Shown: one piece after another, positions 1 through 50,000 of the stretch
Layout of the letters: every line of letters starts with the position of its first letter
Numbering within the stretch: the first letter of the stretch is position 1
The notes under the pieces: generated by a model
Seen by the model: the letters and a program-made list of their open reading frames with translations, nothing else
Told to the model about the DNA's origin: nothing
Databases searched by the model: none
Source of the DNA: Heterodontus francisci
Taxonomy: Eukaryota
Assembly: GCF_036365525.1 (NCBI RefSeq)
Contig: NC_090373.1
Coordinates: forward strand, 85,061,221 to 85,125,220
Direction of reading: 5' to 3'
Length of the DNA: 64,000 nt
Program-made: the position numbers and the translations under genes

Positions 1-3000
1 TCTGACAACCATCATCTGTGCTGTGGTTGTTCTACCTTCTAGCTGCATAAGTGTTTGAAGATAATAATGAATAGCAGCTCCAATAAATCAGGCAATAATG
101 AGTCATGAATGTGCAGGTGCACTCTGTTGTAATTTAGAAACTGCAGCTTGATTGAAAGCTAGGATTGGAGGGCAAAGTTTTCAGACAAATTAGCACCAAT
201 TACAATTTGATGCATGGCCACAGCATAATTTTTTCAACAAGTCCCTTTTGCCAAGGCAATCCTCTCTCAGTTATCATGCTGGAGATAATTGATTCCTAAT
301 TATTAAATCTTCTGATACCAGTGTTTGGGATATAACTTAGTAACTGATCATTTATTTAAATACTTTATGGTATTTAGTTCCACTTTAACCTTTGTGCTTT
401 GTTGCCAGGCAGAATCTACTATGAAAAGGCTACTATTATCATTAGATTTGTAATGTGTACAAAATAGCCTGACCAGATATGAAGCAGAGTCCCAGATAGC
501 TGAATATTTGGGCAGTGATACTGCCATGAAAATAGATATTTTAAAGTACAATGGAGGTAGTGAGAATAATGGGTAGTGTTATACTTTTGTTTTCTTTATT
601 CCTTTAGAAGCCAGAAGAGTTTACCTATAGCTATAATTTAATTGTATATCACATTTTTTCTTTATTTCTGTTAGATTTCTAAAGCCCTCAAATTTTGGAC
701 AGGATGATATCACAGTGGAATTGTTGCTAAACCTAATATCACAATGGTATTTGTACGTTTGCATCATAGTCATAATGAACATAAAATACCCTCAATTCAC
801 AAAAATATAAGTGCTTGATAGAGCTACGAGGCAACAAGTGATAAGTAAATAAACTGCACTGAAATTATAGCTTGGATTATACTGTTAGAGATATATTTGC
901 AGTTACATTTTTCTGTTTTCTTTGAGATTTTTAATTGAGATAAAAAAAATAATTTCTAACACAGCAACTTGTTCCTCTGCAATGTAATTACATATGATTG
1001 TGGTGCTATCTTTTTCTCTTTGTCACCAATTAACAGTTGTTTATTGCAAAAGCAGCAGCTTTGTATGTACTTGCACAAAACTAATGGAATATTTGTTCAT
1101 TACTGAAATTTGCTGGTAAAATTCAAATTATATCTACTGTGTTTCCTTATTGGATTAAGAATATTTGATCGATTTGATGAAATTTATAATAGACTTTTTT
1201 ATTTGTGGTAATAATCCTTTATAGAAACTGGGCCTTTCCTTCATTCAAATTGGCAGCCTTTGCCATGTTGATTTCTGAGGGTAAATTCGTCCAAATGCAC
1301 TCATTGGGAATACATCTTGGGAAATAGTGGGAGTTTCTGCAATTTCCTGACCTGCATTCCTAGAGTGCAAGACTCCATAACCAGAATGCATGCTTATAAA
1401 ATCTTGTCCCTACTGTCAGCTCAATTAAAGGAAATTATTCAAAGATGCACGAAATTCAATATGTAGGCCTATTTTGTAATTGTTTCCAGTTTACAACTTT
1501 CAATTACCAAAATTGCATAATTTTTCCTTTGAAAATGGATTAAATGCCCATTTTTCATAATTATTTTTGACCTATTAACAAATGGTGAGAATATGCATCT
1601 TTGAAGCATGCACTTTCTGAGAGCACAATTTTATTAGAGGTCAAAACAACCAATCAGAATATACCAGAAATAAAGATCCTATTACCCTTTTCAAGCAGCT
1701 ATATGGCCTTTTCAAGCAACTAATGAGCTATTTAAGTGCTGCAAAAAATTGTCAGTGCAGCTGTGGACTGATCAAATTTATTTGAAAATGGCTCAGCAAC
1801 AGCAGTATAAAGGCAAATTTAATGACCTGGCTTTGCATATTCTTTTGATTTATATAATGGAAGGATTTGTGATGTGGGAGGATAACCCCCAAATGTGATA
1901 TGGAGGTAACAAATATGTCCTAGATAACATGAATTCAATGTTAACAATTCTAACGGCCTGATGCAAGTTTAGGAAGAGTCTGATTGATTGAGAGAGCAGT
2001 ATACTGATGGAAGAATATAACTATTCACTATCACCAGAGGACAAATGTGGACCTGGACAAAAGTCATGTGATTAGAAATAAATGCAAATAATGCTGTACC
2101 AACAGATAGAAATGTTAGTAAGTGAAAAAAGCAGAATTATACAAATGCAATGTTACCAAAGAGAATGCACTTCAGAGAAGAATTTCCATGGGTCACATCA
2201 CCTGTCTCAATCCACACTGCTCTAAGCTTAAGAGTAAAGCTGTCACATAAAGCATAACATGGTGGGATCCATATGCATAAATAACTCATTGCATAAAAGG
2301 ACAGAATAGTAAATTAATTCAGGAGGGAGAACTTGGAAGGCTCTGGGCTCCAAATGTGGAAGGCTTGCACCGACCAATTTCTATGCGCTATATTAATTCT
2401 GTTTTCCATGATTTGTGTGAATAGTCACATCAACATATTGATACACATTGGCTGTGTACAATAATGCATTCAATAAAAATATAAAACCTAAATGTATGAG
2501 TAAAGTTTTATAGTGTCCAGACTTCTGTATTCACAGAACAATGTTTAACCAAAGCATACCAAAAGTGCACCATACCCATGAAGACCATCACTCACTGAAG
2601 TGCCATACATCACTGCACCCCAACCCCCCCTTGAATCAGACAGACACAAACACATAAAAGGTTGAAGACGAAGTACAAGGTGTTCAGAAATACTGTGACA
2701 AAAGGGTAGTAGTGGTGGATGTTGATGGAAGAATAGCACCTGAAGTGCTGTAACCTGCTGGGCTAAGGACCAAATGCTGGAAAGTGGGGTTAGGCTGTGA
2801 GGCTCTTTTGTTTCAGCTGGCACAGATACGTTGGGCCAAGCAGCCGCTTTCTGTGCCGTAAACTTTCTATGATTTTTTAAAAATTCATTCATGGGATTTT
2901 TGGGCGTCGCTGGCTAGGCCAACATTTATTGCCCATCCCTAATTGCCCTTGAGAAGGTGGTGGTGAGCTGCCTTCTTGAACTGCTGCAGTCCATTTGGGT

Positions 3001-3187
3001 TAGGTACACCCACAGTGCTGTTAGGAAAGGCGTTCCAGGATTTTGACCTGGCGACAGTGAAGGAACGGCGATATAGTTCCACGTCAGGATGGTGTGTGAC
3101 TTGGAGGGGAATCTGCAGGTGGTGGTGTTCCCATGTATTTGCTGCCCTTGTCCTTCTAGCTGGTTGAGGTCACGGGTTTGGAAGCTG

Positions 3188-5745
3188 CTATCTAAGGATC
3201 CTTGGTGCATTGCTGCAGTGCTTCTTGTAGATAGTACACACAGCTGCCACTGTGCGTCGGTGGTGGAGGGAGTGAATGTTTGTAGATGGGGTGCCAATCA
3301 AGCGGGCTGCTTTGTCCTGGATGGTGTCAAGCTTCTTGAGTGTTGTTGGAGCTGCACCCATCCAGGCAAATGGAGAGTATTCCATCACACTCCTGACTTG
3401 TGCCTTGTAGATGGTGGACAGACTTTGGGGAGTCAGGAGGTGAGTTACTTGCCTCAGGATTCCTAGCCTCAGACCTGCTCTTGTAGCCACGGTATTTATA
3501 TGGCTACTCCAGTTCAGTTTCTGGTCAATGGTAGCCCCTAGGATGTTGATAGTGGGGGATTCAGCGATGGTAATGCCATTGAATGTCAAGGGGAGATGGC
3601 TAGATTCTCTCTTGTTGGAGATGGTCATCGCCTGCCACTTGTGTGGCTCGAATGTTACTTGCCACTTATCAACCTAAGCCTGGATATTGTCCAAGTCTTG
3701 CTGCATTTCTCCAGGGACTGGTTCAGTATCTGAGGAGTCACGAATGGTGCTGAACATTGTGCAATCATCAGCGAACATCCCCACTTCTGACCTTATGATT
3801 GGAGGAAGGTCATTGATGAAGCAGCTGAAGATGGTTGAGCCCAGGACACTACCCTGAGGAACTCCTGCAGTGATGTCCTGGAGCTCAGATGATTAACCTC
3901 CAACAACCGCAACCATCTTCTTTTGTGCTAGGTATGACTCCAGCCAGCGGAGGGTTTTCCCCCTGATTCCCATTGACCTCAGTTTTGCTAGGGCTCCTTG
4001 ATGCCATACTCGGTCAAATGCTACCTTGATGTCAAGGGCAGTCACTCTCACCTCACATCTTGCGTTCAGCTCTTTTGTCCATGTTTGAACCAAGGCTGTA
4101 ATGAGGTCAGGAGCTGAGTGGCCCTGGCGGAACCCAAACTGAGCGTCACTGAGCAGGTAATTGCTAAGCAAGTGCCGCTTGATGGCACTGTTGATGACAC
4201 CTTCCATCACTTTACTGATGATTGAGTGTAGGCTGATGGGGCGGTAATTGGCCGGGTTGGACTAGTCCTGCTTTTTGTGCACAGGACATATCTGGGCAAT
4301 TTTCCACATTGCAGGGTAGATGCCAGTATTGTAGCTGTACTGGAACAGCTTGGCTAGGGGTGCGGCAAGTTCTGGAGCACAGGTGATCAGTACTATTGCC
4401 GGAACATTGTTAGGGCCCATAGCTTTTGCAGTATCCAGTGCCGTCAGTCGTTTCTTGATATCACGTGGAGTGAATCGAATTGGCTGAAGTCTGGCATCTG
4501 TGATGCTGGGGACTTCAGGAGGAGGCCGAGATGGATCATCAACTCGGCACTTCTGGCTGAAGATTGTTGCAAATGCTTCAGCCTTATCTTTTGCATTGAT
4601 GTGCTGGGCTCCCCCATCATTGAGGATGGGGATATTTGTGGAGCCACCTCCTCCAGTTAGTTGTCTAATTGTCCACCGCCATTCACGGCTGGATGTGGCA
4701 GGACTGCAGAGCTTCGATCTGATCCATTGGTTTTGGGATTGCTTAGCTCTGTCAATCGCATGCTGCTTACGCAGTTTGGCACACAGATTGTCCTGTGTTG
4801 TAGCTTCACCAGGTTGACACCTCATTTTGAGGTATGTCTGGTGCTGCTCCTGGCATGCCCTTCTGCACTCTTCATTGAACCAGGGTTGGTCTCCTGGCTT
4901 GATGGTAATGGTAAAGTGGGGGATATGCCGGGCCATGAGGTTACAGATTGTGGTTGAGTACAGTTCTGCTGCTGCTGATGGCCCACAGCGCCTCGTGGAT
5001 GCCCAGTTTTGCATTGCTAGATCTGTTCGAAATCTATCCCATTTAGCACGGTGATACTGCCACACAACACGACGGACAGTATCCTCAATGTGAAGGCGAG
5101 ACGCCGTCTCCACAAGGACTGCGCGGTGGTCACTCCTACCAATACAGTCATGGACAGAAGCGTCTGCAGCAGGCAGATTGGTGAGGATGAGGTCAAGTAT
5201 GTTTTTCCCTCGTGTTGGTTCCCGCACCACCTGCCGCATACCCAGTCTTGCAGCTGTGTCCTTTGGGACTCGGCCAGTTCGGTCAGTAGTGGTGCTGCCA
5301 AGCCACTCTTGGTGATGGACATTGAAGTCCCCCACCCAGAGTACATTTTGTGCCCTTGCCACCCTCAGTGCTTCCTCCAAGTGGTGTTCAACATGGTGGA
5401 GTACTGAGTCATCAGCTGAGGGAGGGCGGTAGGTGGTAATCAGTGGGAGGTTACCTTGCCCATGTTTGACCTGATGCCATGAGACTTCATGGGGTCCAGA
5501 GTCGATGTTGAGGACTCCCAGGGCAACTCCCTCCCTACTGTATACCACTGTCCCGCCACCTCTGGTGGGTCTGTCCTGCCGGTGGGACAGGACAAACCCG
5601 GGGATGGTGATGGCGGAGTCTGGGACATTGTCTGTTAGGTATGATTCGGTGAGTATAACTATGTCAGGCTGTTGCTTGACTAGTCTGTGGGACAGCTCTC
5701 CCAACTTTGGCACAAGCCCCGAGATGTTAGTAAGGAGGACTTTGC
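3188..5745 (-). pseudogene. Disrupted EN-RT polyprotein ORF of LINE copy 1
   Basis: Three collinear ORF fragments separated by a few stops/frameshifts. The endonuclease first motif (VLLTNISGLVPKL) is read just upstream of the tracked ORF start. Confidence 0.88.
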
Positions 5746-6087
5746 AGGGTCGACAGGGCTGGGTTTGCCGTTGTCATTTCCGGTGCCTAGGTTGATGCCG
5801 GGTGGTCCGTCCGGTTTCATTCCTTTTTATTGACTTCATAGCAGTTAGGTACAACTGAGTGGCTTGCTAGGCCATTTCAGAGGGCATGTAAGAGTTAACC
5901 ACATTGCTGTGGGTCTGGAGTCACATGTAGGCCAGACCAGGTAAGGACAGCAGATTTCCTTCCCTAAAGGACATTAGTGAACCAGATGGGTTTTTACAAC
6001 AATCGACAATGGTTTCATGGCCATCATTAGACTAGCTTTTAATTCCAGATTTATTAATTAAATTCAAATTCCACCTTCTGCTGTGGT

Positions 6088-6163
6088 GGGATTCGAACCC
6101 ATGTCCCCGGAGAAATACCCTGGGTCTTTGGGTTACTAGTCCAGTGATAATATCACTACGCCA
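6088..6163 (-). promoter_or_regulatory. Type-2 internal RNA polymerase III promoter (A box and B box) at the LINE 5' end
   Basis: Sense-strand TGGCGTAGTGA (6163-6153) matches A-box TRGCNNAGTGG; GGGTTCGAATCCC (6100-6088) matches B-box GGTTCGAATCC. Confidence 0.75.
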
Positions 6164-6189
6164 CCGCCTACCCTCAAACTTCCCTCAAA

Positions 6190-7848
6190 CTCTTTTGTTC
6201 TGAGGAGAACAACGCCAGTTTTTCCAACCTAACCTTGTAACTAAAATCCTCCACATTCCTGGAATCATACTGGTAAATCTCACTGCAGCCTCTCAAGGAC
6301 CCTCACCTGCTTCCAAAAGTGTGGTGACCAGAACTGAATGCAATGCTCCAGTGGGCCTGATCAGAACTTTATGAAGGTTTAGCTTAACTTCCTTGTTTAT
6401 GTACTCAATGCCTCTCTTTATGAAGCCCAAAATCCCATATGCTTTACTAACCACTCTCTCAATGGGGCCTGCCACCTTCAAAGATCCATGCACATGCACC
6501 CTCAGGTCCCGCTGTTCCTGCAGACTCTTTAGAACTGTGCCATTAAGTATGCATTGCCTCTCCTATTCCTTCTGCCAAAATGCATCACCTCACACTTGTC
6601 AATGTTAAATTCCATCTGGCACCTCTCTGTCCATTCTATCTTTGTCCTGTTGCAGGCGATTCATATCATCCTCACTGTTTGCCACACCTCCAAGTTTAGC
6701 GTCATCGGCAAATTTTGAGATTCTACTCTGTTTTCCAAGGTCCAAGTCATTTATATATAGCAAAAAAGCATTGGTCCCAGCACTGACCCTTGGGGAACAC
6801 CACTGTCTACCATCCTCCAGTCTGAAAAACAACCATTTACTATGACTCGCTGTTTCTGTTCCAAATAGACACTGACCCTCCTATTCCATGAGCCTTAATT
6901 TTCTTAACCAGCCTTTTATGTAGTACCTTATCAAACATTTTCTTAAAATCCATATAAACCGCATTCCCTTCATCAACCTTCTCTGTTACTTCATCAAAAA
7001 AAATTCAATTAGAATAGTCAAGCATGATCTGCCTTTTACAAGTCTATGCTGGTTATCCTTAATTAACTCAAACCTCTCCAAGTGTGTGTTGATTTTTTCC
7101 CTGATGAATGTTTCTAAAACCTTACCCACCACTGATGTTAAACTTACTGGCCTGTAATTGCTAGGACTGTCCTTACATCCTTTCTTGAACAAGGACATCA
7201 TATTTGCCACTCTCCAAACATCTGGCGCCTCCCCCATATCCAGGGAAGATTGGAAAGTTAGGGCAAGCCCTGCCATCTCCACCCCAACTTCCTTTAGCAA
7301 CCTGGGATGCAAGCCATCTGGACCAAGTGACTTATCTACCATAAGCATAGCCAGCCTTTTTATTACCTCCCCGCTCTGAATTTTTGTCCTATCTGTGATG
7401 TCCTCAAAACTTGAATGAGGTTTAGCCGAGTTTGGTGTAGGAAATGAGGCAAAAGTTGGGAGACCGAGACTGCAGCAGCTGAACACAAAGGTTTCTACTT
7501 TTATTCAGTCTTTGTTTCCTTTCTCTTTGCTAGCATATGTGTTCTACAGCAGCCTCTAGAGTACACAATGTACAGTGCAATGCAAAACACGACAACACTA
7601 CACCATCCATTGCCTCTACTCTCTCCGTTTCTACTGATATTTTGTCAAATTCCACTTCCTTAATGAACACTGATACAAAGTACCCATTAAGTATAGTAGT
7701 CTTGCCCTGCTCCTCTAAGCATCTATTACCCTCTTTGTCCCGAATAGGTCCTACTATACCTCTTACTACCCGTTTACTATTTACATGCCTGTAGAATATT
7801 TTTGGATTCACTTTTATGTTGATTGCCATTCTATTCTCATATTCTGTC
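6190..7848 (-). mobile_element. CR1 LINE ORF2 fragment (decayed), interrupted at 7394-7597
   Basis: ORFs 6986-7486 (KSLGPDGLHPRLLKE, NYRPVSLTSVVGK), 6605-6832 (YINDL, SKFADDAKL) and 7530-7850 (NPKIFYRHVNSKR). Confidence 0.88.
7394..7597 (-). mobile_element. Short solo-LTR-like insertion inside the CR1
   Basis: TG...CA ends (TGTGATG / GACAACA), AATAAA on the minus strand, interrupts CR1 homology; flanks CTATC/CTACA match only partly. Confidence 0.45.
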
Positions 7849-8290: not shown

Positions 8291-8296
8291 ATATAA

Positions 8297-9575
8297 TTCC
8301 CAGCCTCTGACCTACTCTTGTAGCCAAGTATTTATTTGGCGGTTCCAGTTAAGTTTCTGCTCAATGGTAACCCTCAGGATGTTGCTGGTGGGGGATTCAG
8401 CGATGGTAATGTCGTTGAACGTCAAGATGAGATGGTTAGATTCTCTCTTGTTGGAGATGGGCATTGTCTGGCACTTGTATGGCATGAATGATACTTGCCA
8501 CTTATCAGCCCAGGCCTGAATGTTGTTAAGGTCTTGCTGCTTGCGGGCACGGTTGCTTCACTATCTGAGGAGTCGTGAATGGCATTGAACATTGTGCAAT
8601 CATCAGCAAACATCCCCACTTCTGATGTTATGATGGAGGAAGGTCATTGATGAAGCAGATGAAGGTTGTCAGGCCAAGGACACTACCCTAAGGAACTCCT
8701 GCAGTGATGTCCTGGGGATGAGCTAATTGGCCTCCTACACCACAAGCATCTTCCTTTGTGCTAGGTATGACTCCAACTAGTGGAGAGTAGTCCCCCTGAT
8801 TCCCATTGACTTTAATTTTGTTAGGGCTCCTTGATGCCACTCTCAGTCAAAAGCTGCCTTGATGTCAAGGGCCGTCATTCCTACCTCCCTTCTGGAGATC
8901 AGCTCATTATCCATGTTTGGGCCAAGGCTGTAATGAGGTCTGGAGCGCGTGGCTCTGGTGGAACCCAAATTGAGCATCAGTAAACAGGTTGTTGCTGAGC
9001 AATTGCCACTTGATAGCACTGTCGACGACCCATTCCATCACTTTGCTGATGATTGAGAGTAGACTGATGGGGCAGTAATTGGTTGGATTGGGTTAGTCCT
9101 GCTTTTTATGGATAGAACATACCTAGGCAAATTTTCACATCATTGGGTAGATGCCAGTGTTGTAGTTGTACTGGAACAGCTTGGCTAGGAGTGTGGATAG
9201 TTCTGGAGCACAAGTTTTCAGTACTACATCTGGGATGTTGTCAGGGTCCATAGCCTTTGCTCTATCCAGTACCTTCAGCTGTTTCTTGATATCACGTGGA
9301 GTGAATCGAATTGGCTGACAACTTGCATTAATGATGGTGGGGATCTCAGGAGGAGGTTGAGATGGATCATCCACCTGGCATTTCTGGCTGAAGATGGATG
9401 CAAATGCTTCAGCCTTTTCTTTTGCACTGATGTTCTGTGCTTCACCATCATTGAGGATGAGGATGCTTGTGGAGCCTCCTCCTCTGGTTAGTTGTTTAAT
9501 TGTGCATCACCATTCACAACTGGATTTGGCAGGACTGCAGAACTTTGATCTGATCTGTTGGTTGTGGGATCGCTT
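8297..9575 (-). mobile_element. Internal RT fragment of the same single-ORF LINE family (copy 2, older)
   Basis: Collinear similarity to ~3460-4740 (MGMFADDCTMF; DDPSQPPPEIP...KTCAPELSTLLAKLFQY). Confidence 0.88.
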
Positions 9576-9629
9576 TTCTCTGGGCCGAAGGGCCTGTTTC
9601 AGTGCTGTATCTCTCTATGACTCGATGAC

Positions 9630-9928: not shown

Positions 9929-10242
9929 CTTGCTAGGCCATTTCAGAGTGCAGCTAAGAATCAACTACATTGCTTTGGGTATGGAGTCACAAAAAGGCCA
10001 GACCTGGTAAGGACAGCAGATTTCCTTCCCTAAAGGACATAAGTGAACCAGATGTTTTTCATAACAATCCAGGAGTTTCATGGTCTCCATTACTGAGACA
10101 AGCTTTTTATTCTAGATTTATTAGTTAATTGAATGTAAATTCCACCAGCTGCCACGGTGGGATTTGAACCCATGCCTTTGCAGCATTAGACCAAGTCTCT
10201 ATATTACTCATCTAGTAACATTACCACTACACTAGCATCCCC
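9929..10242 (-). mobile_element. tRNA-derived head of the LINE/SINE family (diverged copy)
   Basis: Similar to 5853-6173 and 17350-17670 (GGGTTCAAATCCC B box; TGTCCTTTAGGGAAGGAAATCTGCTGTCCTTACC core); same strand as LINE copy 2. Confidence 0.85.
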
Positions 10243-11736: not shown

Positions 11737-12084
11737 TTAGTTTAGTTTAGTTTAGAGATACAGCACTGAAACAGGCCCTTCGGCCCACCGAGTCTGTGCC
11801 GACCATCAACCACCCATTTATGCTAATCCTACACTAATCCCATATTCCTACCACATCCCCACCTGTCCCTATATTTCCCTACCACCTACCTATACTAGGG
11901 GCAATTTATAATGGCCAATTAACCTACCAACCTGCAAGTCTTTTGGCTTGTGGGAGGAAACCGGAGCACCCGGGGAAAACCCACGCAGACACAGGGAGAA
12001 CTTGCAAACTCCACACAAGCAGTCCCCAGAATTGAACCCGGGTCGCTGGAGCTGTGAGGCTGCAGTGCTAACCACTGCGCCGCC
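11737..12084 (-). mobile_element. HE1-type tRNA-derived V-SINE inserted in the Gypsy LTR
   Basis: GCAGTGGTTAGCAC A box, GGGTTCAATTC B box, GGTGCTCCGGTTTCCTCCCAC V-domain core, (CTAAA)n tail. Confidence 0.88.
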
Positions 12085-13078
12085 ACTGTGGCTTCTAGTC
12101 ACATGGCTATATCCTGGTACTTAGCTTGTTAGCATACTGAGCTCTTAAAGGGACATCACTTTAAGGCAATCATACAACATCCCCTTTCTTTCCAAAGATA
12201 GGTCTTGTATGCTACAGGTAAAAACTCATAAAATTGGATAACATCAAAATTATTTATATGGGATAGAGATTAGAAAATCTACAAGTGCAGAAGCTTAAGA
12301 GTCCATATATCATTTTGATGGTTTGACAACTCTTCCAGATCTTGTTATGGTATAACCTTCTCGGGGTGTGGATTTTACCCTTGGCTGTTTTGGTTTGCAG
12401 ATGTGTTGTCAATGTGTTGGTTGTTGTCCTGTCGTTCTGCCACACCCTCAGTGTCAGAGTGTGACATCTTCTGAGTCCACTGTATGCACTTGGAGTATTG
12501 CACACTTCTCTCAATTGGCTTTGGTTCCTCCCCAACACTGCTCTGCAGGTTGTAACCTTCTAGGACGTAGGCTTACTGCAAACTTTGGATACTTCTGTGG
12601 GTAACCATGTTTTCATTGTGGCATGTATGACCCAGATCTCTTGTCCTACATGCAGCTGATGTAGTTCCGTCCCTGCATGTCGGTCATGCATCATCTTCAT
12701 TCTCCCTTGTTTTTCGAGCAGTGTCTCCTGCATATCGGAGAATTTGGACAACTGATGGCTTGGCAGGATCATTCACACTTGTCTGCCAAACATGATCTCT
12801 GCTGATGACGGCAAGCCCATCCTCATAGGTTTAGTTCTGAGGTGTAGCAAGGCAACACAAAAATCTTGTTTCATTGTCCTTTACTTCAGGATAAGTGATT
12901 TAACTCTGCAAACCATTCGCTCAGCAAGACCACTAGATCTAGGGTAATGTGGTGAGGATGTCACATGGTTTACGTCCTATTTGGTGCACATATCCCTGAA
13001 AGGTCTGCCCATAGACTGTGGCCCATTGTCAGAAATAATTTCTTCAGATGCATCAAATAGACTGAATATGGCACTCAA

Positions 13079-15658: not shown

Positions 15659-15980
15659 GGGTGGCACTGTGGCGCAGTGGTTAGCACCTCAGCCTCACAG
15701 CTCCAGGGACCCGGGTTCGATTCTGGGTACTGCCAGTGCGGAGTTTGCAAGTTCTCCCTGTGACCGCGTGGGTTTTCGCCAGGTGCTCCGGTTTCCTCCC
15801 ATAGCCAAAGACTTGCAGGTTGGTAGGTAAATTGGCCATTATAAATTGCCCCTAGTGTAGGTAGGTGGTAGGGAATATGGGATTAGTGCAGGGTTAGTAT
15901 AAATGGGTGGTTGTTGGTCGGCACAGACTCGGTGGGCCGAAGGGCCTGTTTCAGTGCTGTATCTATAAATAAAAATAAAT
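15659..15980 (+). mobile_element. HE1-type V-SINE inserted in the Gypsy gag region
   Basis: Same A/B boxes, V core and tail as 11737-12084. Confidence 0.88.
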
Positions 15981-16904: not shown

Positions 16905-17985
16905 AAACACATAAATCCTTAAGGTGACAGGACAAATTGATAAGGTGATTTAAAAAGCATCTGAGTTATTCAGGATAAAAATAGAAGAACAGAATATAAA
17001 AGTAAAGAGATCATGCTGGAAGTTTATAAAACACTGGTTAAGATTCAGCTGGGGTATTATGGACATAACGGCACCACACTTAGGAAAGATTTAAAGGCCT
17101 TGGAAAGGATACTGAGGAGGTTTACTGGGATGTTACTAAGGATGAGGGACTTCATTTATGAGGAAAGGTTGGAAAGCGAGGATTATTCTCCTTCGATAGA
17201 AGGTTAAGAGGTGACGTAATAGAGATTTTCAAGATGAGAAGAGATTTTGATAGAGTCGAGAAAAATTATTCCTTCTGGTGGGCAAGTCAATAACTAGAGG
17301 TCATAGATACAAAATTATTAGCAAAAGATCTAGCGGGGAGACCATGAATGGGGAGGCGGTGGCGTACTGGTATTGTCACTGGACTAGTAACCCAGAAACC
17401 CCGGTATTGCTCTGGGGACATGGGTTCGAATCCCACCACAGCAGAAGATGGAATTTGAATTCAATTAATAAATCTGGAATTTAAAGCTACTCTAATGATG
17501 ACCATGAAACCATTGTCGATTGTTGTAAAAAAACCCATCTGGTTCACTAATGTCCTTTAGGGAAGGAAATCTGCTGTCCTTACCTGGTCTGGCCTACATG
17601 TGACTCCAGATCCACAGCAATGTGGTTGACTCTTACATGCCCTCGAAATGGCCTAGCAAGCCACTCAGTTCAAGGGCAATTAGGGATGGGCAATAAATGC
17701 TGGCCTGGCCTGCAACGCCCACATCCCATGAATGAATTTTTAAAAAAGATGAAGAGAGCTGTTTTCTTTTAGAGAATTGTCAGGATCTGAAACGCTCTAC
17801 CTGAAAAAGTAGTGGAAGTTGATTCCATCAATAATTTTAAAAGGGTGTTGGACAGGCACTTGATGATGAGGAACTTACAGGGTTGAGACAAAAAGCAGGG
17901 AGTGGGACGAAGCACAACTGCTTTTTCAAGGAGCCAGCGCAGGCCAAATGGCCTCCTTCTGTGCTGTAAGTTTCTATGATTCTAC
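16905..17985 (+). mobile_element. CR1 LINE 3' fragment, split by a SINE at 17350-17747
   Basis: ORF 17013-17207 (LEVYKTLV, KDLKALERILRRFTGML); CR1 homology resumes after 17747 through the 3' UTR. Confidence 0.8.
17350..17747 (+). mobile_element. Bipartite tRNA-derived SINE = 5' ~320 nt + 3' ~77 nt of the LINE at 2873-6173
   Basis: 17350-17670 matches the reverse complement of 5853-6173, and 17671-17747 matches the reverse complement of 2873-2951. Junction reads GCCACTCAGTT|CAAGGGCAATTAGGG. Confidence 0.92.
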
Positions 17986-19321: not shown

Positions 19322-19404
19322 TTCTTCTCAAGGGCAATTAGGGATGGGCAATAAATGCTGGGCTAGCCAGCGACACTCACATCCCATGAGCAAATAAAAA
19401 AAAA
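19322..19404 (+). mobile_element. Isolated 3' tail of the single-ORF LINE family (heavily 5'-truncated insertion)
   Basis: CTTCTCAAGGGCAATTAGGGATGGGCAATAAATGCTGG...ATCCCATGA + poly(A), inserted in a CR1. Confidence 0.85.
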
Positions 19405-21856: not shown

Positions 21857-23405
21857 CTAGAATTCCCAAAAACTACTTCTTGTTCAGGCTCCAGTATGTT
21901 CACTGAGTAGCAGATGTTGCCAATGCAAAGAAAAGGATAATGATGCTCTTTGGAGGGAGAGTGGGTGTTTCGTCTTCTGGTTGTTTTCTGGTTCCTAGAT
22001 GTTGAAAATAATCACACTTTAAACTTGGAAAGGCTGGAGACTTTGTTTATTCATTCAGCCAGCATGCTGCCTGGTGTAGGACAGCTTGAGACTGGTTTAG
22101 TGTTACACATCGCATGACTCTCCAGTGCAGCCATGAAGTTGCCCCACTGGAACACTTGCACATAACAATTAGTTCCTAGCACTTTACAGATAATATAACA
22201 ATAAATAACATTATTAATATTAATCTTTCAGCAATCCCTTGCTCAGTGAACTGAACTCATATTGCTGAGATGATTGTTGTGGCTCTCAAGTCTTTCACTT
22301 TCCGAATAAAAGGGAACTTTGAGTTTTGCAACTATGAGATACCATTCTTGATTATGTGTGAATAAATCGACTCCTACAGTATGCCATGGTCTGGGTGGTA
22401 CTTCAGTAGCTATCATCTCCTGTTTCTAATGTGTGTTTCTGTGCTTCTGGCATACGTTGCATGTAGACACTATATTTTTGATGTCTTTGTATATGCCTAT
22501 CCAGTACACAGCTGATCTGGCTCTGAGCTTACATTTCTCCATTCCCATGTGACCTTCATGTATCCTTTGGAGAAGTTCTTCCTGCATTGTTTTGGGTATG
22601 ATTATTCTGAATCCGGCTAGTAGAACACCAACTTCTAGTGAGATGTCATCTCTGATAGACCAGTACTGCCGTATTGCTGGCTGTGTTTGCTGTATCTTAT
22701 CAGGCCATCCCTGGATCATTTGCTGAGACAGCATCTGTAACTCCTCATCTTTGCTGTTCTCATCTCTAATTTGACTAAGTTTTGGTGGTGTTACATTCAC
22801 TAGGTGATGAATCCTTATACCTAGATCTTCTTTCTCGTGTTTCTTCTGTGGTGACAACTGAGATAGGGTGTCTGCCAGCACCATTTCTCTTCCTGGCTTG
22901 TATTTCAGAGTGAAATCGTAACTCTGAAGCCCCAAGAGTAACCTCTGCAGTCTTGCTGGTGCTTTATATAGATTGTTCTTGTAGATCTGCTCCAGTGGGC
23001 AATGATCACTCTCCACGATCAACTTTCTCCCACAGACATATGTGTGGAACTTCTCACATCCGTACACGACTGCCAAAAGCTCTCTTTCTATGTGGCATAT
23101 CTTGTCTCCGCTGGTGTTAGAACAGGGTTGTCCAATCTTTTCGGGCAGAGGGCCACATTGCGATTGTTGCTCGGCCTGGGGGGCCGGTGAGCAAATTTCA
23201 AAAGATAACGGCATTAAAATTTATCTTCCTAATAAAAACAACAACAAATGTGCATTTTTTGTGAAGAAGTTTAAATGAGAAGACTAATTTCGTGACTTCA
23301 TTTCTTGTAACTATATTAAAAACTGATTTAGTGACATACCTGACATTGTTTTTGCTTTAATAAGTAGTCAAACTCCGCCTGTGCACTTGATGTGACGATG
23401 CAGAA

Positions 23406-26400
23406 TGTAGGGGAGACTGGCTTAGGGAATCATGGGATACTTGGCATAACTTAGATCCCTGAAACCTGAGAAAAGCTTGCCTGTTAGACACACAAATAAC
23501 ATGAATAACCTAATCAAAAGGTAAACGAGATCAGGAGGGAGACACCTGAATCACATGAATAACCTAATCAAGAGGTTGACGAGATGAATAATATAGCCAG
23601 GATGATGTTAGGGAAGATAGTAGATGGGAGATGATGTAATTAAAGAAGCAGCTTGTCAAGTAAACCTCCTGTAAACAGTATAAAATGACTGCTCAGGCAT
23701 TGTGCTAGTAGAATCCCCACAATCGTTCGTGAGAGTAGGACTTCTCCTTGCATGCTCATAATACAGATCACTCGTTTGGACAAGACATCCGACTCTTGAG
23801 TTGTTTTTGGGTACCGGGGAAAACCCTCACCCTTACATTTGACGTTGTCAGCAGGATATATCACATCGGGACCTTGACAGTGAGGAGACCGATCAAAGGG
23901 TGAGTACCTTTTATTTTACCACCCGTAGTTAGGAAAGGTCTACCACACAGTCACGGGACTGGTGTACTTTAAGTGGGGTATCGAAGAACCAACGCCTGGA
24001 GACTCGAGTGCCGAGCAATCAAAGCGCACACCAGGGTAGTAGGTAGCGAGTTGAAAGAACCGGGCAGAGACCCATGCTGAGAAAGTTGCATAGTAGGTGA
24101 AGCCACGCAGGGGATTTAGAGGTATCTCAAAGGCTGTTACCGCATAGGAGACCGCGCTGAGAGAGACTGCAAAGCAGACCTTCACAAGGGGTCGATCTAT
24201 GCAGAGATTTAAAGGGTATCCTGTAGGTCAATACTGCTCGGGCAGACCACATTCTGACAGAATGAAGGCCTAGACTGGGGACTGGGGTGGGGGTCCCTTA
24301 TCAGGTTTATAGCAGATGAAAATTTGATCAGTAAAATGAAAAAAGGTGAGTGGGAATCTAATGACCCCCCCCCCCACCCCCCACCCCAGAAACGCAAAGA
24401 GCATGCTGGAAGGGCCAAAAGAAAGTTCAGAAGGATAAGGCAATTAGGATCAGACTCAATTCTTATATGGGACTCTGCCGGTGAGTCCACTAACATTCCC
24501 AAAAGCAGAAACAAATTAACAGCGAGTCCAGAACAAAGTCCAGAGATAGAAACAAGTTTCAGAAAACGATTGGTAGAAATTACATTTGAAGTACCACAGT
24601 AGCCTAGAATGCTGTTGAAAGGACAAAAGAAGGAAAACGTGTGTGTGTAAGTCTATGTTGGTGTTTGGTCTATTTGTGTGTTCAGAAGTTGTTGAATGGT
24701 AAATGTGAATGTGAGTAAATTAAGGAAAGAGCAGGAAGATAGGTGTGCCATAGATGACAGGACAAAGAGTCAATTACAGAAAGAAAGGGATAAACGAGGG
24801 GGGGAAACGACCCAGTCATATAGAAGAGACAGGTCAGTGGGATGATAGAGTGGAGTTCCTGAAGGCATATTGTGTGGAAAAAGCAAGGGAAAAGGAAAAG
24901 AGGGAGGCGGACGAGAGATTGTTGAAGCAGAGGTGTCGCGAAGCTGAGCAGGAGCGGGACAATGTTAAGGCTGCCTACTGGGTTTTGCAGTCAGAGTGCA
25001 AGACCAGGATTGACCATGCATTAAGCTCAGGGATTTACTCAGCCCTATCAGAGGAAGGGAGAATGGCTCGAGGCACCTGGGACGAAATGAAGACTTGGGT
25101 AACTAGGGCTATGGGCCTCAGAAAAAGAGACACATATCAGCTAGTTCAGAATACTCATCAAAGAATGACTATGGCTGCATAACCTCTTGGAGTTTGTCTG
25201 CTTTATGAGTGTTTGTCTTTTTCCTTTAGTTTCTAATTATAGTTGATGCAAGTTATTTGAAGAAAGGAGAATTGGGATCATTGACGTAATTGATTTATTT
25301 CTGTTTCCCTTCCTTTAAACGCATGTGCTACTCTTTTCTGTCTGTGTGTGTGTGGATTTATTTATTTTATTTGGGCGCATGATGTTTGTGTGCTTGAATT
25401 TGTGATTTTCAGTGCAATTTTAAAACTAAGACATACTGGCGCAAACTACTGGCAGATGGGGATGAAGCTCCTGTTTGTTTTCCAAATATAAAGAACAGTC
25501 CAGAGCCATGCAGAAGTCTGGCAGAAACCCAGTTTTAACCTTTCAAACCTTTGCAGCAAGTTAAAGAAGACGCAATTCAAATGTGGTTAAGTAGGGAACA
25601 TCAGAACTTGGAAGTTATTCTAAAGGACAGGGAAAAGTTGCCAGGAGTAGGGGATCAAGTGATTGTTAGGGTCCTACTTGCAAAACCAGGCTTAGCATCT
25701 CGCTGGCAAGGACCTTACGAGGTCCCGATGACAAGCAACACTTGTACGTGTGGATGTGCAAGGGAAAGGCTGATGGAAACGGACACAGATCAAGGAGTAT
25801 GGAAATGCAAAGAATAATAAGGACTAACCGAAGATGACCGGCGTCCGCTATGTTCTCTCTTTACAGGACCATGAAAACCACAGTATTGCAAATATGTCTG
25901 GCAACCACGATTGTAGAAGGAACCAAGTCTGTTGACTAGGGACCCAACAAGGCCTGTTCAATAAGAACTTGAACGATGCCAATTGCCATCAGGCACATGG
26001 ACTGTTAAATGTCACAGTTAATAAACTAGTATGTCTAAGGAGTAGCTCAGGTCAGTTGGGAACGAGGAGCAGCAGTGCCTGAAGGTGCAAAGCGTGGCAA
26101 TGAAGGTTCCCTTATACTTAAAAGCAGTCATGCATAAATCTAGTGTCAGTATCATCCACTGTAGTTCTAACTTTATAACCCTATTCTATCTGTATGCAGT
26201 TACTTGTTGGATTAAGTTCTATTCGAGTTATTTGTTATTGAATTGTCTAACCAATGTGAATGTTGACTGTAGGGTCCCATTTTGGATAATTTGCTCATTA
26301 TTTGTATCGTGAACGAGAGGGGTTGTTAGACTCCATTGAGTGTACATGAGCACATTGGCTGAATTGCATAGCCAGATTCACTGATTCAATTGTAACTCTT

Positions 26401-28135
26401 AATTTAAAAAATTAAATTGCTAGAATAATTGTGTAGAGCCAGTCAATATTTATTAATGAATTATAACTGTTAGCTATAATGAGCTTGCTGACTTCTAAAT
26501 CATAATGAACAAAGCAATGTTTAAATGGAATTGTAAGTTAGATTTGTATTTAACCAACATGCTAGCAAAACACTAAAGAAGCAGGGGCATCCAAACCCTT
26601 CTCAGGATAGAGAATACAGGGATCATGGGAGATAGCAATTGGCCAAAGTACAACCTCGTACCCAAATACGCGACCCAGAGAGATTCCCTCCTCAGGGGAT
26701 TTCGCTGGCTGGGTGTAGGGAATAACATTGTCTGTCCACATCCCATGGGGATAGGGATGAGAGCCGCGCATGGTTTCAATACCACCCTAAACTGTATCCT
26801 TGAAATTTCCAGGGCACGCCATGAACCGACACAGGTGGCACACCGTGGAGAAGGGGAGTACTGCATGACCACCAGCGAGACTCAATACCAGCACTGCCCA
26901 GTGATCAACTCGAGTTTCTGCTTCCACCCCCAGGCCCCAATGACAATCAGACATTTGGCGATATCTCAAATCCGGTCTCCCCGTTGGGTGTGGATGAATA
27001 TAACTGATGATCTAACGGAGGACTTGTTGAGATACCTGCTTCCCGAGGGGAAGCAAATCCATAAACTGCTGAAACATGTACTGAAGGTGAGAGAAGTGGC
27101 CCGGACAGCAATAAAGCTGTATCACCGAATCCAAAAGGAGGTCAAGCAACTGGGAGAGGATGTGGTAGCTCAACTGGAGGACGCATCATGGTGGGAGACG
27201 GTTTGGGACTGGGGTATTAGGGTTGACGTTCACCCCTGATTAAAATTGTTTTCCATGTACTGGTGGTCATGCAGTTGCTAATTGCTGTCGGACTTATGGT
27301 TGAATGTTGTACCCTGGCACCTAAATTGAGATGTTAGACATAATTTAGAAAATGTAACCATGCAAATCTAACCGCCTGTCTGGCCAACAGTGATGGAGCA
27401 AGGAGCACTTAGTGTTAGTTGGCCATCTGGCTAGTAGCCAAGGGTCAAAAGGAGAACTGAAGTGGTGTACTCTGGGAGTACTGCAGGCTTGACTAAAATT
27501 GCTGTAATTTATGTAGCATAATACAAAGTATCAATCCTAGATTAAGCCTGGTCACTAGGACACAGGTGAGGTCATAAGAGGATACTAGGGAAGGATCCAA
27601 AGCTCATCGAAACTGGTAGGATCCCCGGATTATTCAAAGGGCAGAGGATTCTAGGGTAATGGCTACCTTGGGCCAGGTGCTGGCCAAGGGCCAAAAGGGG
27701 GGTCTGTAGGGGAGACTGGCTTAGGGAGTCATGGGATACTTGGCGTAACCTAGGTCCCTGAAACTTGAGAAAAGCTTGCCTGTTAGACACACAAATCACA
27801 TGAATAACCTAATCAAAAGGTAAACGATATCAGGAGGGAGACACCCGAATCACATGAATAACCTAATCAAGAGGTTGGCGAAGTGAATATTATGGGCAGG
27901 ATGAGATTAAGGAAGACAGTCGATGGGAGATGATGTAATTAAAGAAACAGCTAGTCACTAAACTTCCTGTCAACTGTATAAAATGACTGCTCAGACATTG
28001 TGCTAGTAGAATCCCTACAATCATTCGTGAGAGTAGGGCTTCTCCGTGCATGCGCATAATACAGATCACTCGTTTGGACAAGACATCCGACTCTCAAGGC
28101 AACTTTGTGTACCGGGGCAAGCCCTCACCCTTACA
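23406..28135 (+). mobile_element. Env-bearing endogenous retrovirus-like provirus, internally deleted (no RT seen)
   Basis: LTRs 23406-23837 and 27705-28135 (TGTAG...TTACA); TSD CAGAA/CAGAG; tRNA-Ser-like PBS TGACGTTGTCAGCAGGAT at 23840; polypurine tract before 27705. gag-like ORFs 24324-25182; integrase C-terminal GDQVIVR...RWQGPYEV (25551-25817). Confidence 0.88.
25871..27337 (+). pseudogene. Disrupted envelope/fusion glycoprotein gene of the provirus
   Basis: ATG at 25871 follows a splice acceptor and encodes signal-like MKTTVLQICLATTIVEG. Cys-rich ORF 26625-27239 ends in a heptad-like stretch and WWETVWDWG. A frameshifted hydrophobic segment IVFHVLVVMQLLIAVGLMVECC starts at 27245. Confidence 0.65.
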
Positions 28136-29224: not shown

Positions 29225-32189
29225 CTGCGAAACTGATAGCGAATAGTTTAAAAATGGTCTGACAAAGGGAAATTTTGTCATCTCCAGTTACGGTGATGAT
29301 GAGGAATGGCCCCGGGAACAATTTCTATCCACAGGCCGGATGGAAACATTTGGTGGGCTGGATCCTGGCCTGTGGGCCGTATGTTGGATAACCCTGTGTT
29401 AGAACTTTGGATGCAAATGCTATTGGCTTTCCCTCTTGTACAAGGGCTGCTCCCAGTCCTTTTGTAGAAGCATCTACTTGCAGAGTGACAGCTTTCTTTG
29501 TGTCATAGTATGACACAGATGTTTCCTTACATACAACTTTTTGAGTTTGTTGAAACTCCTGTCATGTGACTCTGACCACTGGTACTCTACATCTTCTTTC
29601 ATCACCTCCCGCAAGTTTGTTATTTGTTCTGACATGTGCAGAATAAAGGAGCTGATGTATTGGATCAAGCCAATAAAACTTTTCAACTTTCTCTTATCTC
29701 TTGAGGCTTCAATCCCAGAGATGGCTGAGATTCTTTCAGGACTCGGCTTGACTCCGTCAGGTGTGTACACCATTCCGAACAACTGGCATTCTGTCACTTT
29801 CACAATGCATTTGTCTGCGTTTAGCTTAATCCCAGCTTTCCTGGTTCTCTCCATTGTTCCATGTAGTTGGTTATCATGATCTTTTCCATCTACACCATAT
29901 ATCTGGATATCATTTGCTATGCCGACTGATCCTTTGCATCCCCTGTATGTCTCATCGACTTTCTGTTGGAACACATTCTGGCTCACTTTGAGACCAAAAG
30001 GTAGAGGCAGGAATTTGTACCATCCAAAGGGTGTGTTGAATGTTGTCAACAGTGAAGATTCTGTGTCTAGCTTCACATTCCATTAGCCATTTCTGGCATC
30101 AAGCTTGCTGAAAACCTTTGCCCCTGCCAGTGCTGGTGTAATTTCTTCCAGTGTTGGAGTAAGGCAGTGATCCTTCTTTATTGCTTGGTTAAGATCTTTG
30201 AGATCTAGGAAAATTCTTAGTCGTCCGTTTCACTTCTCTCTCACCACAATAGAATTGACCCAATCTGTCAGCTCTGTAACTCCGGTGATCAGCTTCTTTT
30301 CTTCCATTTCTTGGAGTTGTCTTTCCAGCTTTCCTTTTAGTTCTATTGGTACTTCACATGGGGGATGAATCACTGGTTTCATCGCTGGGTCAATAGTGAT
30401 GTGATACTCAAAATCTTCAAAGCATCCAACCATCGCATCAAAACAGTCTGGTTACATTTGTACCAGATCTTCTTTGCTCCTGATCGGAGGGCGCTTTTCA
30501 ATGAGTGTATTGTCTACAACCCTCAGTGTTGCCTCCTTCACCTCATGGTTTACTGAGATAATCTGCAGCTCTTCACAACTGCTCAACCCCAGGATAGCTG
30601 AACCATCTGTTTCAGTGACGTAGAACATATAGTTAACATCTTTTCTTTTGTATGTCCCTCTGATTTGGGTTGTTCCTAGTTGTCAAAACTCAGTTCCCCG
30701 TATGCTGTTAGCATGACGTTGTTTGGTTTCACAGCACCTTTCCTTGGATAACCATTTTCCCCCAAATTTTCAAGAAAGATCTGCTGGTATAGTCCGTGTG
30801 GGATGATGTTACTCTGTGCTCCAGTATCAATCTTCACCTTCAGATTTATCGTTGTGGGCTTATTTCTCAGCTTCTTCCTGATCTGAATGGTCATGCAAAT
30901 TTCTTTTCTCTGGGAACTGTCACATCCAGACATTTCGTGCAATTGTATGGTTCCTTTGTCTATCACGTTCTCAAACCCATCGTCATCTTCCAGGGTGTGG
31001 ATATTTTGGTTTTTTTCACTACTCATTTGCCCTGTTACTCTGGCTCTGGTGACTCGTCTACCACCTTCTTCCTTTGACCTGCACATCTTTTCCCAGTGAT
31101 TGGTCTTTCCGCAAGCTCTGCAGATTGATCCATATATGGGACATTCCCTTCCGTCTGTGATTTCATGTGGTCGTTCACAGCTCCTGCACATCTTTTTCTC
31201 TGTCTGGTGTACATTCTTTCATTGTTGTTTCACTGCATCAACCCTGCTGCCCTTCTCTTGGCTTAACTGAAGGCTAGCTGTTTGGGTAGTGAGTGTCTTC
31301 ATCTGTCTGCTCGTGGCTTCATGTGCCCCGGCAGTGTCTACAGCCTGCGATATTGTGAGCCATCCTTTCCAATTAGAGCTTTCTGTACTTCAGGATGTGC
31401 AGAAACCTAAATGAGCTGATCTATCAGCCTTTCATCTGTGTCCTTAAATTTATATTTTCTGGCTGGATTTTTCAATCTTGTTAAAAACTAGTCAGTAGGC
31501 TCACCTAGTTCCTGTCTGAGGTATATCCGATGATTTGATTTTGGCTGGAGATGGGTACTGAATCTTTCAAAAATTTTGTCTGGATTTCTGCTGCCCTCAT
31601 CAATTAGGTCCCAGCTGTTAAATAAATTTAATCCTTTATCTCCTGCCCAGAGAAGGATATATCTGACCCTCTTCACTAATGCCTTTTAGGAAACTACAGA
31701 ATGCAAGCTGAACTTTTGTTTGAACTTTTCAAATGCCTCCATGACATCATAGGCTTCCCAATTCATTTTGGGCTGTAGATGTGCATTCATCCCTGATCCG
31801 GCTGACATTTCGTTTTTTTCGTTTTCACACATCACTTAGTTTTTCTTTCTCTCTCTCTGGCACTAATTTGGGTCAATTTTTCCCAATCTAATTCTTTTTA
31901 AATGTTCTAGATTTGCTCACAGACACTCGCTGTCATGTTTCATCTTCTGGTTCCCAGATGTTGGAAATAATCACACATTAAACTTGGAAAGGCTGGAGTC
32001 TTTGGTTATTCATTCAGCCAGCATGCTGCCTGGTGTTGGACTACTTGAGACTAGTTTCCTGTTACACATCACATGACTCGCTAGTGCAGCCATGAATGTG
32101 GCTCCCCTGGAGCACTTACACATAACAATTAGTTCCTAGCACTTTACAGATAGTATAACAATATATCACAGTGAGACACATTCCTGAGA

Positions 32190-33010
32190 GAACAAATAGG
32201 TGAAGGGAAAGGGTTACAGTCAAGGGAGAAGTGAGAGAGTGACTCTATTTGGTGGGTCAGGAGCAAAGAGAAGAAATATCCCATTGTGGGGAATGTTGAA
32301 AAAGATCCTGCTAAGGGATGAAGAACTAGACATGCTAGTTCACTATGGAGAAGGATGATGTAGGTGTAGAGATCAGGGAGGGGGATTGTGATAAACTTGA
32401 ACATATTAGTATTGTAAGGGAGGAAGTGTTAGCTGTTTTACCGGGCTTAAAAGTAGATAAATCCCCAGGCCCCAGAAGAGATGTATCCCAGGCTGTTATG
32501 TGAGGTCAGGGAGGAGCTAGCAGGGGCTCTGACACAAATTTTCAAGAAGGGTAACAAGGATAACAAGAAGGGTAACAGGCCAGTGAGTCTAAAATCAGTG
32601 GTTGGGAAACTATTGGAAAAAATTCTGAGGGACAAGATTAATCTCCACTTGGAGAGGCAGGGATTAATCAGTGATAGCCAGCATGGCTTTGTCAGGGTGA
32701 GATCGTGTCTAAATAACTTGATTGAATTTTTCAAGGAGGTGACTAGATGTGTTGATGTAGTCTACATTGACTTCAGTAAGGCTTTTGATAAGGTCCCACA
32801 TGGGAGATTGGTTAAGAAGGTTAATTGGTTAATTGGTTAAGAGCCCATGGGATCCAGGGCAATTTGGCAAATTGGGTCCAAAATTGGCTTAGTGGCAGGA
32901 GGCAGAGGGTGATGGTTGAGGGTTGTTTCTGCAAGTGGAAGCCTGTGACCAGTGGTGTACCGTAGGGATCGGGTGCTGGGACCCTTGCTGTTCGTAGTGT
33001 ACATTAATGT
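32190..33010 (+). mobile_element. CR1 LINE RT fragment
   Basis: ORF 32481-32840 (QHGFVRVRSCLNNLIEFF, VYIDFSKAFDKVPH). Confidence 0.88.
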
Positions 33011-34743: not shown

Positions 34744-34969
34744 CTGAGGATGGAAATAAAACCAGGGAGAAAACAAAATACAAGAAATCATCTAGAAATG
34801 AAAACTCAAGATAAACAGAGCGGATGTAGAAGTGATTTCCATAGATGGCTAGAATGATGGCTCCAATGTGTTGCTGTACAGAATAGTAAGATGTGGTTTT
34901 GCATAGGTGAGTTCCATATATTATTTCCAAATCTGACCTGGGCCTTCATGGGAAGATTCTGAGTAGTTG

Positions 34970-36980: not shown

Positions 36981-37246
36981 GCAGGCTATCAAGCAACAGA
37001 GGCTGCCACCAAAGACCCAATGGAAGGGTGCCGAACTCTCCAGTAAGTGAGGGGATTCAGAAAGGTCTTGTAATCGGGAGAGGGGGAGGGAAATTGGGGT
37101 CGGGGAGGCCTAAGCTTTCTGCTAAGATATGGGGACTGGGGTAGCCAACATCACTACACAGACCATTGTTCCCACTCCTCACATGACCAGTGTGAGGTCA
37201 TGTGAGGGTGACCCACACAGAATGTCTCTTCCACCTTGGGCTTAGC

Positions 37247-39500: not shown

Positions 39501-39559
39501 GTAATATTGGATGGTTTGGCTTATAAAGTTGGTTTGGAATGTTTGTTTTGTGATGGCTT

Positions 39560-49668: not shown

Positions 49669-50000
49669 AGTGGCGCTGTGGTTAGCACTGCAGCCTCACA
49701 GCTCCAGCGACCCGGGTTTGGTTCTGGGTACTGCCGGTGTGGAGTTTGCAAGTTCTCCCTGTGACTGTGTGGGATTCCGCCAGGTGCTCCAGTTCCCTCC
49801 CACAGCCAAAGACTTGCAGGTTGATAGGTAAATTGGCAATTGTAAATTGCCCCTAGTGTAGGTAGGTGGTAGGAGAATGGTGGGGATCTGGTAGGGAATA
49901 TGGGATTAAATTAGGATTAGTGTAAATGGGTGGTTGTTGGTTGGCACAGATTCGGTGGGCTGAAGGGCCTGTTTCAGTGCTGTATCACTCTATGACTCTA
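49669..50000 (+). mobile_element. HE1-type V-SINE
   Basis: Same structure as the other copies; (CTATGACT) tail variant. Confidence 0.88.

Follow-up and report, generated by a model that had tools for sequence, protein, structure and literature searches.

A tRNA-headed Zenon LINE of sharks and rays avoids T clusters on its sense strand and is probably an RNA polymerase III transcript

The stretch of DNA analysed here (the window) comprises 64,000 nucleotides (nt) of Heterodontus francisci (contig NC_090373.1, positions 85,061,221 to 85,125,220), and its minus strand carries at 2873-6173 a decayed copy of an abundant 3.3-kb family of long interspersed nuclear elements (LINEs). The parts of this copy, in window coordinates, are as follows.

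6075-6173, minus strand: tRNA-like head with a long variable arm, element position +1 lying at 6173 (from 5' ends and a weak match to a tRNA covariance model)
6153-6163, minus strand: A box of a type-2 RNA polymerase III (Pol III) promoter (motif search)
6089-6099, minus strand: B box (motif search)
5997-6074, minus strand: AT-rich linker, 15% divergent between old and young subfamilies, with short upstream AUG frames inside
5850-5996, minus strand: conserved 147-nt body directly 5' of the open reading frame (ORF), a candidate translation-initiation element (subfamily comparison)
5855-5880, minus strand: hairpin at the end of the body, with the 7-nt loop CUAGCAA at 5864-5870 (fold, loop comparison)
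5840-5842, minus strand: in-frame GCU codon, the proposed start region (conservation across copies)
2939-5842, minus strand: single ORF for an APE endonuclease and reverse transcriptase (RT) (Pfam domains, frame reading)
2873-2938, minus strand: 3' untranslated region (UTR) with AATAAA (2925-2930), a GAAT repeat, a T5 variant (2879-2883) and the A tail (sequence reading)

The ORF of this copy contains six premature stops (5776, 4264, 3895, 3676, 3190 and 3172) and no frameshifts. The consensus frame has 975 codons, and another copy, L069, has 972 codons without interruption. Judged by its sequence, the element is an elasmobranch Zenon LINE, a family already known: it has a single ORF with APE and RT domains and no ORF1, a poly-A tail (28 copies; 48 ends), and exact window motifs recur in five and six of the seven elasmobranch Zenon consensi and nowhere else in the published table (first 400 nt per row). 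These consensi (CarCar_Zenon, HypSab_Zenon, RhiTyp_Zenon, ScyCan_Zenon and SquAca_Zenon) were published in 2026 (Stuart et al., PMC13343379; several of the papers cited here, this one among them, are drawn on in excerpt). The element resembles them in a first 400 nt that is near-identical by eye, in a length of 2.9-3.3 kb, in its single APE-RT ORF and in its A tail, and no sequence difference emerged within the part compared. The main text of that paper has no matches for tRNA or polymerase III, and its excerpted passages contain no head, T avoidance or absent AUG. According to the same source, Zenon elements of all phyla are without ORF1 and have A tails; since this is so, the lack of ORF1 does not support Pol III transcription, as the original prediction had proposed.

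The A and B boxes that had been read at the 5' end were recovered by a search with the consensus motifs. ARAGORN found no tRNA gene at the head, and the head of copy L069 gave a weak whole-length alignment to the Rfam covariance model of the long-variable-arm tRNA-Sec (E 0.2; 19.7 bits, where the gathering score is 47). The A box is identical in the young and old consensi and is seen by eye in all seven published heads. The B box of the old consensus deviates only where the consensus motif is degenerate, and it is canonical by eye in six of the seven published heads, the stingray consensus appearing 1 nt short.

A probe across the junction of head and ORF returned 5127 candidates, and all 40 that were scored span the junction at about 96% identity. 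Among 39 copies selected in this way, 27 begin in the first 8 nt, four within 31 nt, and eight are truncated inside the head; the 5' flanks of 28 have nothing in common. As such a set is biased toward the head, a second set of 39 copies was picked by a 3' probe. Thirty of these end inside the ORF, a typical LINE truncation, and of the nine that extend to the start of the ORF, eight have the head, the ninth adjoining a simple repeat. Head, body and ORF also follow one another in this way in an older subfamily (75-88% identity). All seven published elasmobranch Zenon consensi, from five sharks and rays, begin with the head, and the hagfish (two) and coelacanth (one) Zenon consensi are without it (PMC13343379; first 400 nt each). 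The tRNA-type head is real, family-wide, as the original prediction required of it, and conserved across elasmobranchs; a chance insertion of a short interspersed nuclear element (SINE) before one copy is rejected, since junction, 3'-probe and old-subfamily copies share the head. Head, conserved body and APE-RT frame form a single unit that transposes whole. Of 16 copies inspected, most showed no clear target-site duplication.

It may nevertheless be asked whether the head acts as a promoter, and an alternative is that this LINE is transcribed by RNA polymerase II (Pol II) and has captured a SINE that serves as its 5' UTR, the boxes being retained through hitch-hiking or through exchange with SINE forms. 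LINEs are described as Pol II transcripts (PMC10886601), and the tRNA part diverges fastest in the element (19% between old and young subfamilies; the old consensus was projected on the young and mixes subfamilies, so that its divergences are lower bounds). Against this reading, which we regard as unlikely, the 5' ends cluster 10 nt upstream of the A box. It would also have to attribute the avoidance of T runs described below to some other pressure on the RNA, for instance from a nuclease that cuts at UU or from U-rich elements of decay, splicing or poly(A) addition.

Several known repeats share parts of this organization. Like SINE2 and T+ SINEs such as Can (PMC9599045), the element has an A/B head starting at G, a conserved body and a LINE-type tail, and like T+ SINEs it has AATAAA and, ahead of the A tail, a T run of variable length, which reaches T4-5 in 7 of 48 ends; unlike these (up to 600-700 nt and non-coding), it has a 2.9-kb ORF between body and tail. 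A tRNA-derived A/B head is shared with SINE2, at the weak covariance-model score given above, whereas a short, non-coding build is found only in the short forms considered below and not in the 3.3-kb LINE. SacSINE1 and the Deu-SINEs (PMC5499810) are likewise tRNA-headed shark repeats with a conserved body. However, the Deu core motif (published alignment, supplement of PMC7245038) matched the window four times at three mismatches, with 3.9 matches expected, and none lay in the element; a first labelling of the body as Deu/SacSINE1 was therefore dropped. The tail of SacSINE1, compared by description only, was matched to L2-2_CM and not to Zenon (PMC5499810). RTE-1_DAn (PMC5786205) is another LINE noted to hold tRNA-like sequence, but it belongs to the RTE clade and is treated there as a source of accidental matches, the excerpted text giving no position or function. 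Full-text literature searches, sequence motifs included, found, among the papers listed, no description of a Pol III-driven coding LINE, of the head or of an IRES (internal ribosome entry site) in such an element; Repbase, Dfam and subscription journals lay outside their scope.

The family is also represented elsewhere in the window, as follows.

34983-36980, plus strand: copy 3, older and 5'-truncated, 86% identical to the consensus, without a sense run of four Ts (T4)
8296-9582, minus strand: copy 2, an internal fragment of an older copy (85%), with one T4
9929-10230, minus strand: old head and body (77%), which from strand and order probably formed the 5' end of copy 2
17350-17747, plus strand: short non-coding form, head and body (94%) fused to the last ~70 nt of the LINE
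19324-19404, plus strand: 3'-end fragment

The original prediction rested in part on an absence of sense TTTT from the element, and this is borne out. From 2884 to 6242 (3359 nt) the plus strand is free of runs of four or more As, the longest such stretch in the window (the runner-up has 1261 nt), and the only sense T5 of the copy is at 2879-2883. The ~2 kb of copy 3, also read as free of TTTT, lie inside the longest T4-free stretch of the plus strand in the window (34901-37335), and the adjoining CR1 element (6190-7410), said to be rich in sense runs of four or more Ts, has ten of them. Young and old consensus alike have no sense T4. Eleven of 39 copies were excluded from the young consensus as interrupted or partial, and 13 of 40 loci from the old set, leaving 27 old copies that were counted.

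Two kinds of control were used. The first, from the same genome, is the CR1 family at 37430-37830, represented by an 18-copy consensus (21 of 39 copies, below 1.5 kb, were excluded) of 4.26 kb with a 936-codon ORF2 and 17 sense T4 runs. The second comes from a metagenome search that gave 12 related loci, four of them (L070, L071, L072 and L074) with full ORFs. DNA relatives of the element were found neither in the viral contigs searched, apart from one chance 17-mer, nor in the genome contigs. L070 has an intact 1004-codon frame, a Met before the endonuclease, a GC-rich 5' end and a (TAA)n-like tail. Its 5' end (450-760) showed no A or B box by motif search; a self-cleaving ribozyme head was suspected there by eye and was not confirmed, Rfam giving no match.

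Only 20% of the element is T, and the strength of the T4 signal varies with the null model. The count of zero compares with 4.4 in base shuffles (p 0.012) and with 4.8 when the protein is kept and codons are redrawn (p 0.003); over all nulls p ranges from 0.003 to 0.19, and T4 absence on its own is borderline evidence. The wider pattern is clearer. Runs of three or more Ts number four against 12.9 expected, with none of 5000 shuffles as low, and 5-nt windows with at least four Ts number two against 23 in base shuffles and 11 in dinucleotide shuffles. The near-absence of such interrupted runs fits the degenerate terminators of human Pol III, which also stops at interrupted T runs (PMC3141230). 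A consensus of 29 sequences has no T4 and seven T3, with A, C and G runs normal. Where a T could be used synonymously in the young consensus, it was used at 156 of 470 sites if it stood alone (33%), 44 of 229 if it made TT (19%), 4 of 52 if it made T3 (8%) and none of five if it made a run of at least four Ts; in the old consensus the corresponding figures are 32, 19, 6 and 0%. This fall with run length was not seen in the ORFs of CR1, L070, L071, L072 and L074, and the A, C and G of the element's own ORF show no comparable fall. The headless controls are not T-run depleted, although protein identity to the closest of them is only 41%. In the element, avoidance of T clusters on the sense strand is graded and specific to T. 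The protein itself is adapted to this avoidance, since only five sites of the ORF could form T4 by a synonymous T (28-58 in controls) and there are 18 Phe residues (32-50 in five controls); TTA is used for none of 92 Leu codons.

A compositional accident, in which a low-T, TT-poor lineage simply happens to be without T4, has the low T content in its favor, together with a dinucleotide-preserving expectation of 1.6 runs. Yet the effect is graded and specific to T and to the sense strand (15 antisense T4 runs against 14.6 expected), and it persists over 93 synonymous and 42 non-synonymous codon changes between the subfamily consensi, so that this account is very improbable. Avoidance of self-targeting by the endonuclease was also set aside as a cause of T-run loss, antisense T runs being at expectation. 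The RNA pressures that a Pol II transcript would call for have in their favor that TT dinucleotides are depleted as well (odds 0.70). Depletion of TA, however, does not exceed that in L070 (0.69 vs 0.64), which speaks against a UU/UA nuclease, and the presumably Pol II-transcribed CR1 of the same genome shows no gradient and has a sense T4 density 25-30 times that of the element (per kb, 0.145 and 0.18 in the two sets of 39 copies and 0.65 in the 27 old copies, against 4.65 in 39 CR1 copies).

The start of the coding frame poses a separate problem. The original prediction placed it about 110 nt after the head; this holds for the endonuclease domain, which Pfam places some 110-125 nt past the head (both APE and RT domains being detected), but the open frame begins right at the head end. 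In the consensus this frame has its first Met at codon 285, past the endonuclease. The ATG at 5837-5839 was rejected as a start codon, as it is a minority allele, most of 29 aligned copies having ACG; the published heads have ACG, ACA or AAA at this site. The head holds nine AUGs, none of which opens the ORF and all of which the capped RNA of a Pol II element would have to scan past. For two related proteins, P0001 and P0007, the start was placed at a Val directly at the endonuclease; contig ends could account for this, or else non-AUG starts in other lineages.

What lies immediately before the frame is better preserved than most of the coding sequence. Only 4 of the 147 positions of the body differ between subfamilies. 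Divergence, as a lower bound, amounts to 19% for the tRNA part and 15% for the linker; most of the ORF shows about 5-6%, its thinly covered C-terminal part 2%. The body-terminal hairpin (-7.4 kcal/mol, z -1.4) has a loop, CUAGCAA, one base off the head's anticodon loop, CUAGUAA, and the in-frame GCU lies 12 nt past it. Among 45 copies this codon reads GCT in 33, ACT through CpG decay in seven and another triplet in five; by eye it is GCT in all seven published heads, and its distance to a downstream anchor is 33 nt in 43 of the 45 copies. In the whale-shark consensus the spacer before GCU is 1 nt shorter and the stretch behind it 3 nt shorter, length changes that would be expected if translation starts there. 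Two pseudoknots are conceivable: (a) loop UAGC with GCUA, 4 bp and invariant, and (b) GGUUR with YAACC ending just 5' of GCU. The one variable pair of (b) is A-U in 39, G-U in 7 and the mismatch G-A in 29 of 80 copies, and by eye G-C in three and G-A in four of the seven published heads. The two candidates consist of 4-5 pairs with little or mixed covariation. One candidate long-range helix changes from U-G to C-G in 12 of 80 copies. Folding of the body as a whole is weak (z -0.3 to -0.5), and Rfam searches with cut-offs of E 5 and E 10 returned no IRES family.

The arrangement resembles that of type 6 IRESs, in which a structured element of 120-190 nt stands right before a non-AUG start, anticodon-codon mimicry lies next to the first codon, and GCU is the commonest start in types 6a-6d (bioRxiv 2024.04.17.590008, PMC12221177). 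It differs in having no Rfam IRES match, weak folding z-scores and pseudoknots that are not established; PKII/PKIII, the L1.1, SLIV and SLV motifs and a family-model match were not found in it, and neither the type 6a/6b L1.1 motif nor a CAGCC loop was seen by eye. The body is a candidate, and unproven, IRES, with a likeness to type 6 and not membership in it. A fuller version, in which an uncapped 3.3-kb RNA is made by Pol III, the body is a factor-independent IRES of the intergenic-region (IGR) type with an anticodon-loop mimic, the APE-RT protein starts at or next to GCU, and SINEs of this type are internal deletions that keep the ribosome-binding body, is tentative and, as a whole, rather doubtful.

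The cap problem would be solved without an IRES if Pol III drove only an ancestor or makes only short RNAs, the translated mRNA coming from Pol II read-through or processing, with T avoidance kept because Pol III would produce the template RNA rather than the mRNA. RNA contigs do span the whole element, with a 3' bias. Still, no RNA would then have an AUG for the endonuclease, the body is more constrained than the ORF, and young and old subfamilies do not differ in the strength of avoidance, which together make this combination improbable.

The 3' end and the short forms bear on how such an RNA might end and spread. The consensus tail contains AATAAA, and behind it, just before the A tail, is the only place where sense T runs recur: among 48 tail ends there are T4-5 in 7, T2-3 in 8, T1 in 30 and no T in 3. 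Short forms are joined at at least six element positions in genomic copies (3192, 3199, 3205, 3217, 3220 and 3238), several inside the ORF, and contigs of public runs show further joints. Repeated internal deletion of the LINE would most simply account for them; an older SINE is one possible first source of the head. Two short forms (L200:991-1379 and L216:1166-1546) are inserted in older full-length copies of the same family, and therefore were active after those LINE copies had inserted. Persaeus, a lepidopteran Zenon derivative, is likewise a short form made of 5' and 3' Zenon ends, but the excerpted text describes it as lacking both homology to tRNA and a Pol III promoter (PMC6740152), unlike the tRNA-type head here.

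Taken together, the sequence evidence points to an autonomous LINE of the Zenon clade, present in sharks and rays, with a full-length RNA that is probably made by Pol III from an internal tRNA-type promoter. Pol III is the best explanation because it covers several things at once: the boxes, the point at which the element starts, the avoidance of T on one strand and a need for cap-independent initiation. TFIIIC and Pol III would start at +1 and read 3.3 kb from which terminators have been purged, transcription stopping at a T run at or past the tail. The uncapped RNA would, less certainly, be translated from a non-AUG start near GCU that is set by the conserved body. The protein would then insert the RNA by target-primed reverse transcription, which is established for APE-type LINEs, and short forms would be carried along as SINEs.

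Several observations weigh against Pol III transcription. T4 absence is not significant against synonymous-codon shuffles (0 vs 2.1, p 0.08-0.10) or dinucleotide models (0 vs 1.6, p 0.17-0.19). Isolated TT over codon junctions is avoided too (5 of 51 vs 33%), more than the T4 signal alone would need, and headless L070 shows a milder avoidance of the same kind (10 of 54 vs 37%, p 0.009). No close headless sister was found among the sequences searched, the nearest, L070, being 41% identical. The T runs of the tail could be explained as decayed A tails. In contigs from public runs (24 runs, one recorded as RNA; four examined), depth rises to the 3' end like genomic copy number; these contigs show neither starts, ends nor strand and were not used as transcription evidence. 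Finally, transcripts of this length are considered beyond the low processivity of Pol III (PMC10886601).

The rest of the window contains other repeats. Canonical CR1-type LINE fragments lie at 6190-7410 (minus strand), 37336-38290 (minus strand) and 32457-33009. A second short repeat family of ~340 nt, which we take to be probably a tRNA-type SINE resembling V-SINE/HE1, has five copies at 78-94% (11741-12090, 15664-15980, 47554-47767, 49669-50000 and 61313-61662). Broken long terminal repeat (LTR) retroelement remnants, with RNase H, integrase zinc finger, RT and zinc knuckle by Pfam, occur at 22426-23220 and 29474-31218 (minus strand) and at 53815-55344 (plus strand). A 432-nt direct repeat (23406-23837 and 27705-28135, 90%) is possibly an LTR pair, and the two plus-strand ORFs between its copies (24754-25182 and 26577-27239, 142 and 220 codons) have no Pfam match. 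A C-rich ORF at 39346-39726 (minus strand), for which a mitochondrial origin was suspected, gave no Pfam match and no clear mitochondrial protein in three frames.

Reviews separate LINEs, as coding Pol II products, from SINEs, as short, non-coding Pol III products, and explain the shortness of SINEs by the poor processivity of Pol III (PMC10886601). A family with a Pol III-type head that recurs in sharks and rays, and with T clusters purged from a 2.9-kb ORF, challenges this split, and the element may be a protein-coding RNA from a polymerase normally kept for short non-coding RNAs. The missing AUG, the conserved body before the ORF and the internally deleted short forms, absent from the original prediction, are added here, and with them two old questions become testable on one short construct: how the protein of a LINE without ORF1 is initiated without AUG, and why SINE bodies are conserved. 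IGR-type IRESs in elements of the non-LTR class have been raised as a possibility (PMC3894237). If the candidate role of the body is true, a cellular mobile element would unite Pol III mRNA synthesis with virus-like initiation, and one conserved SINE body would gain a defined origin and function.

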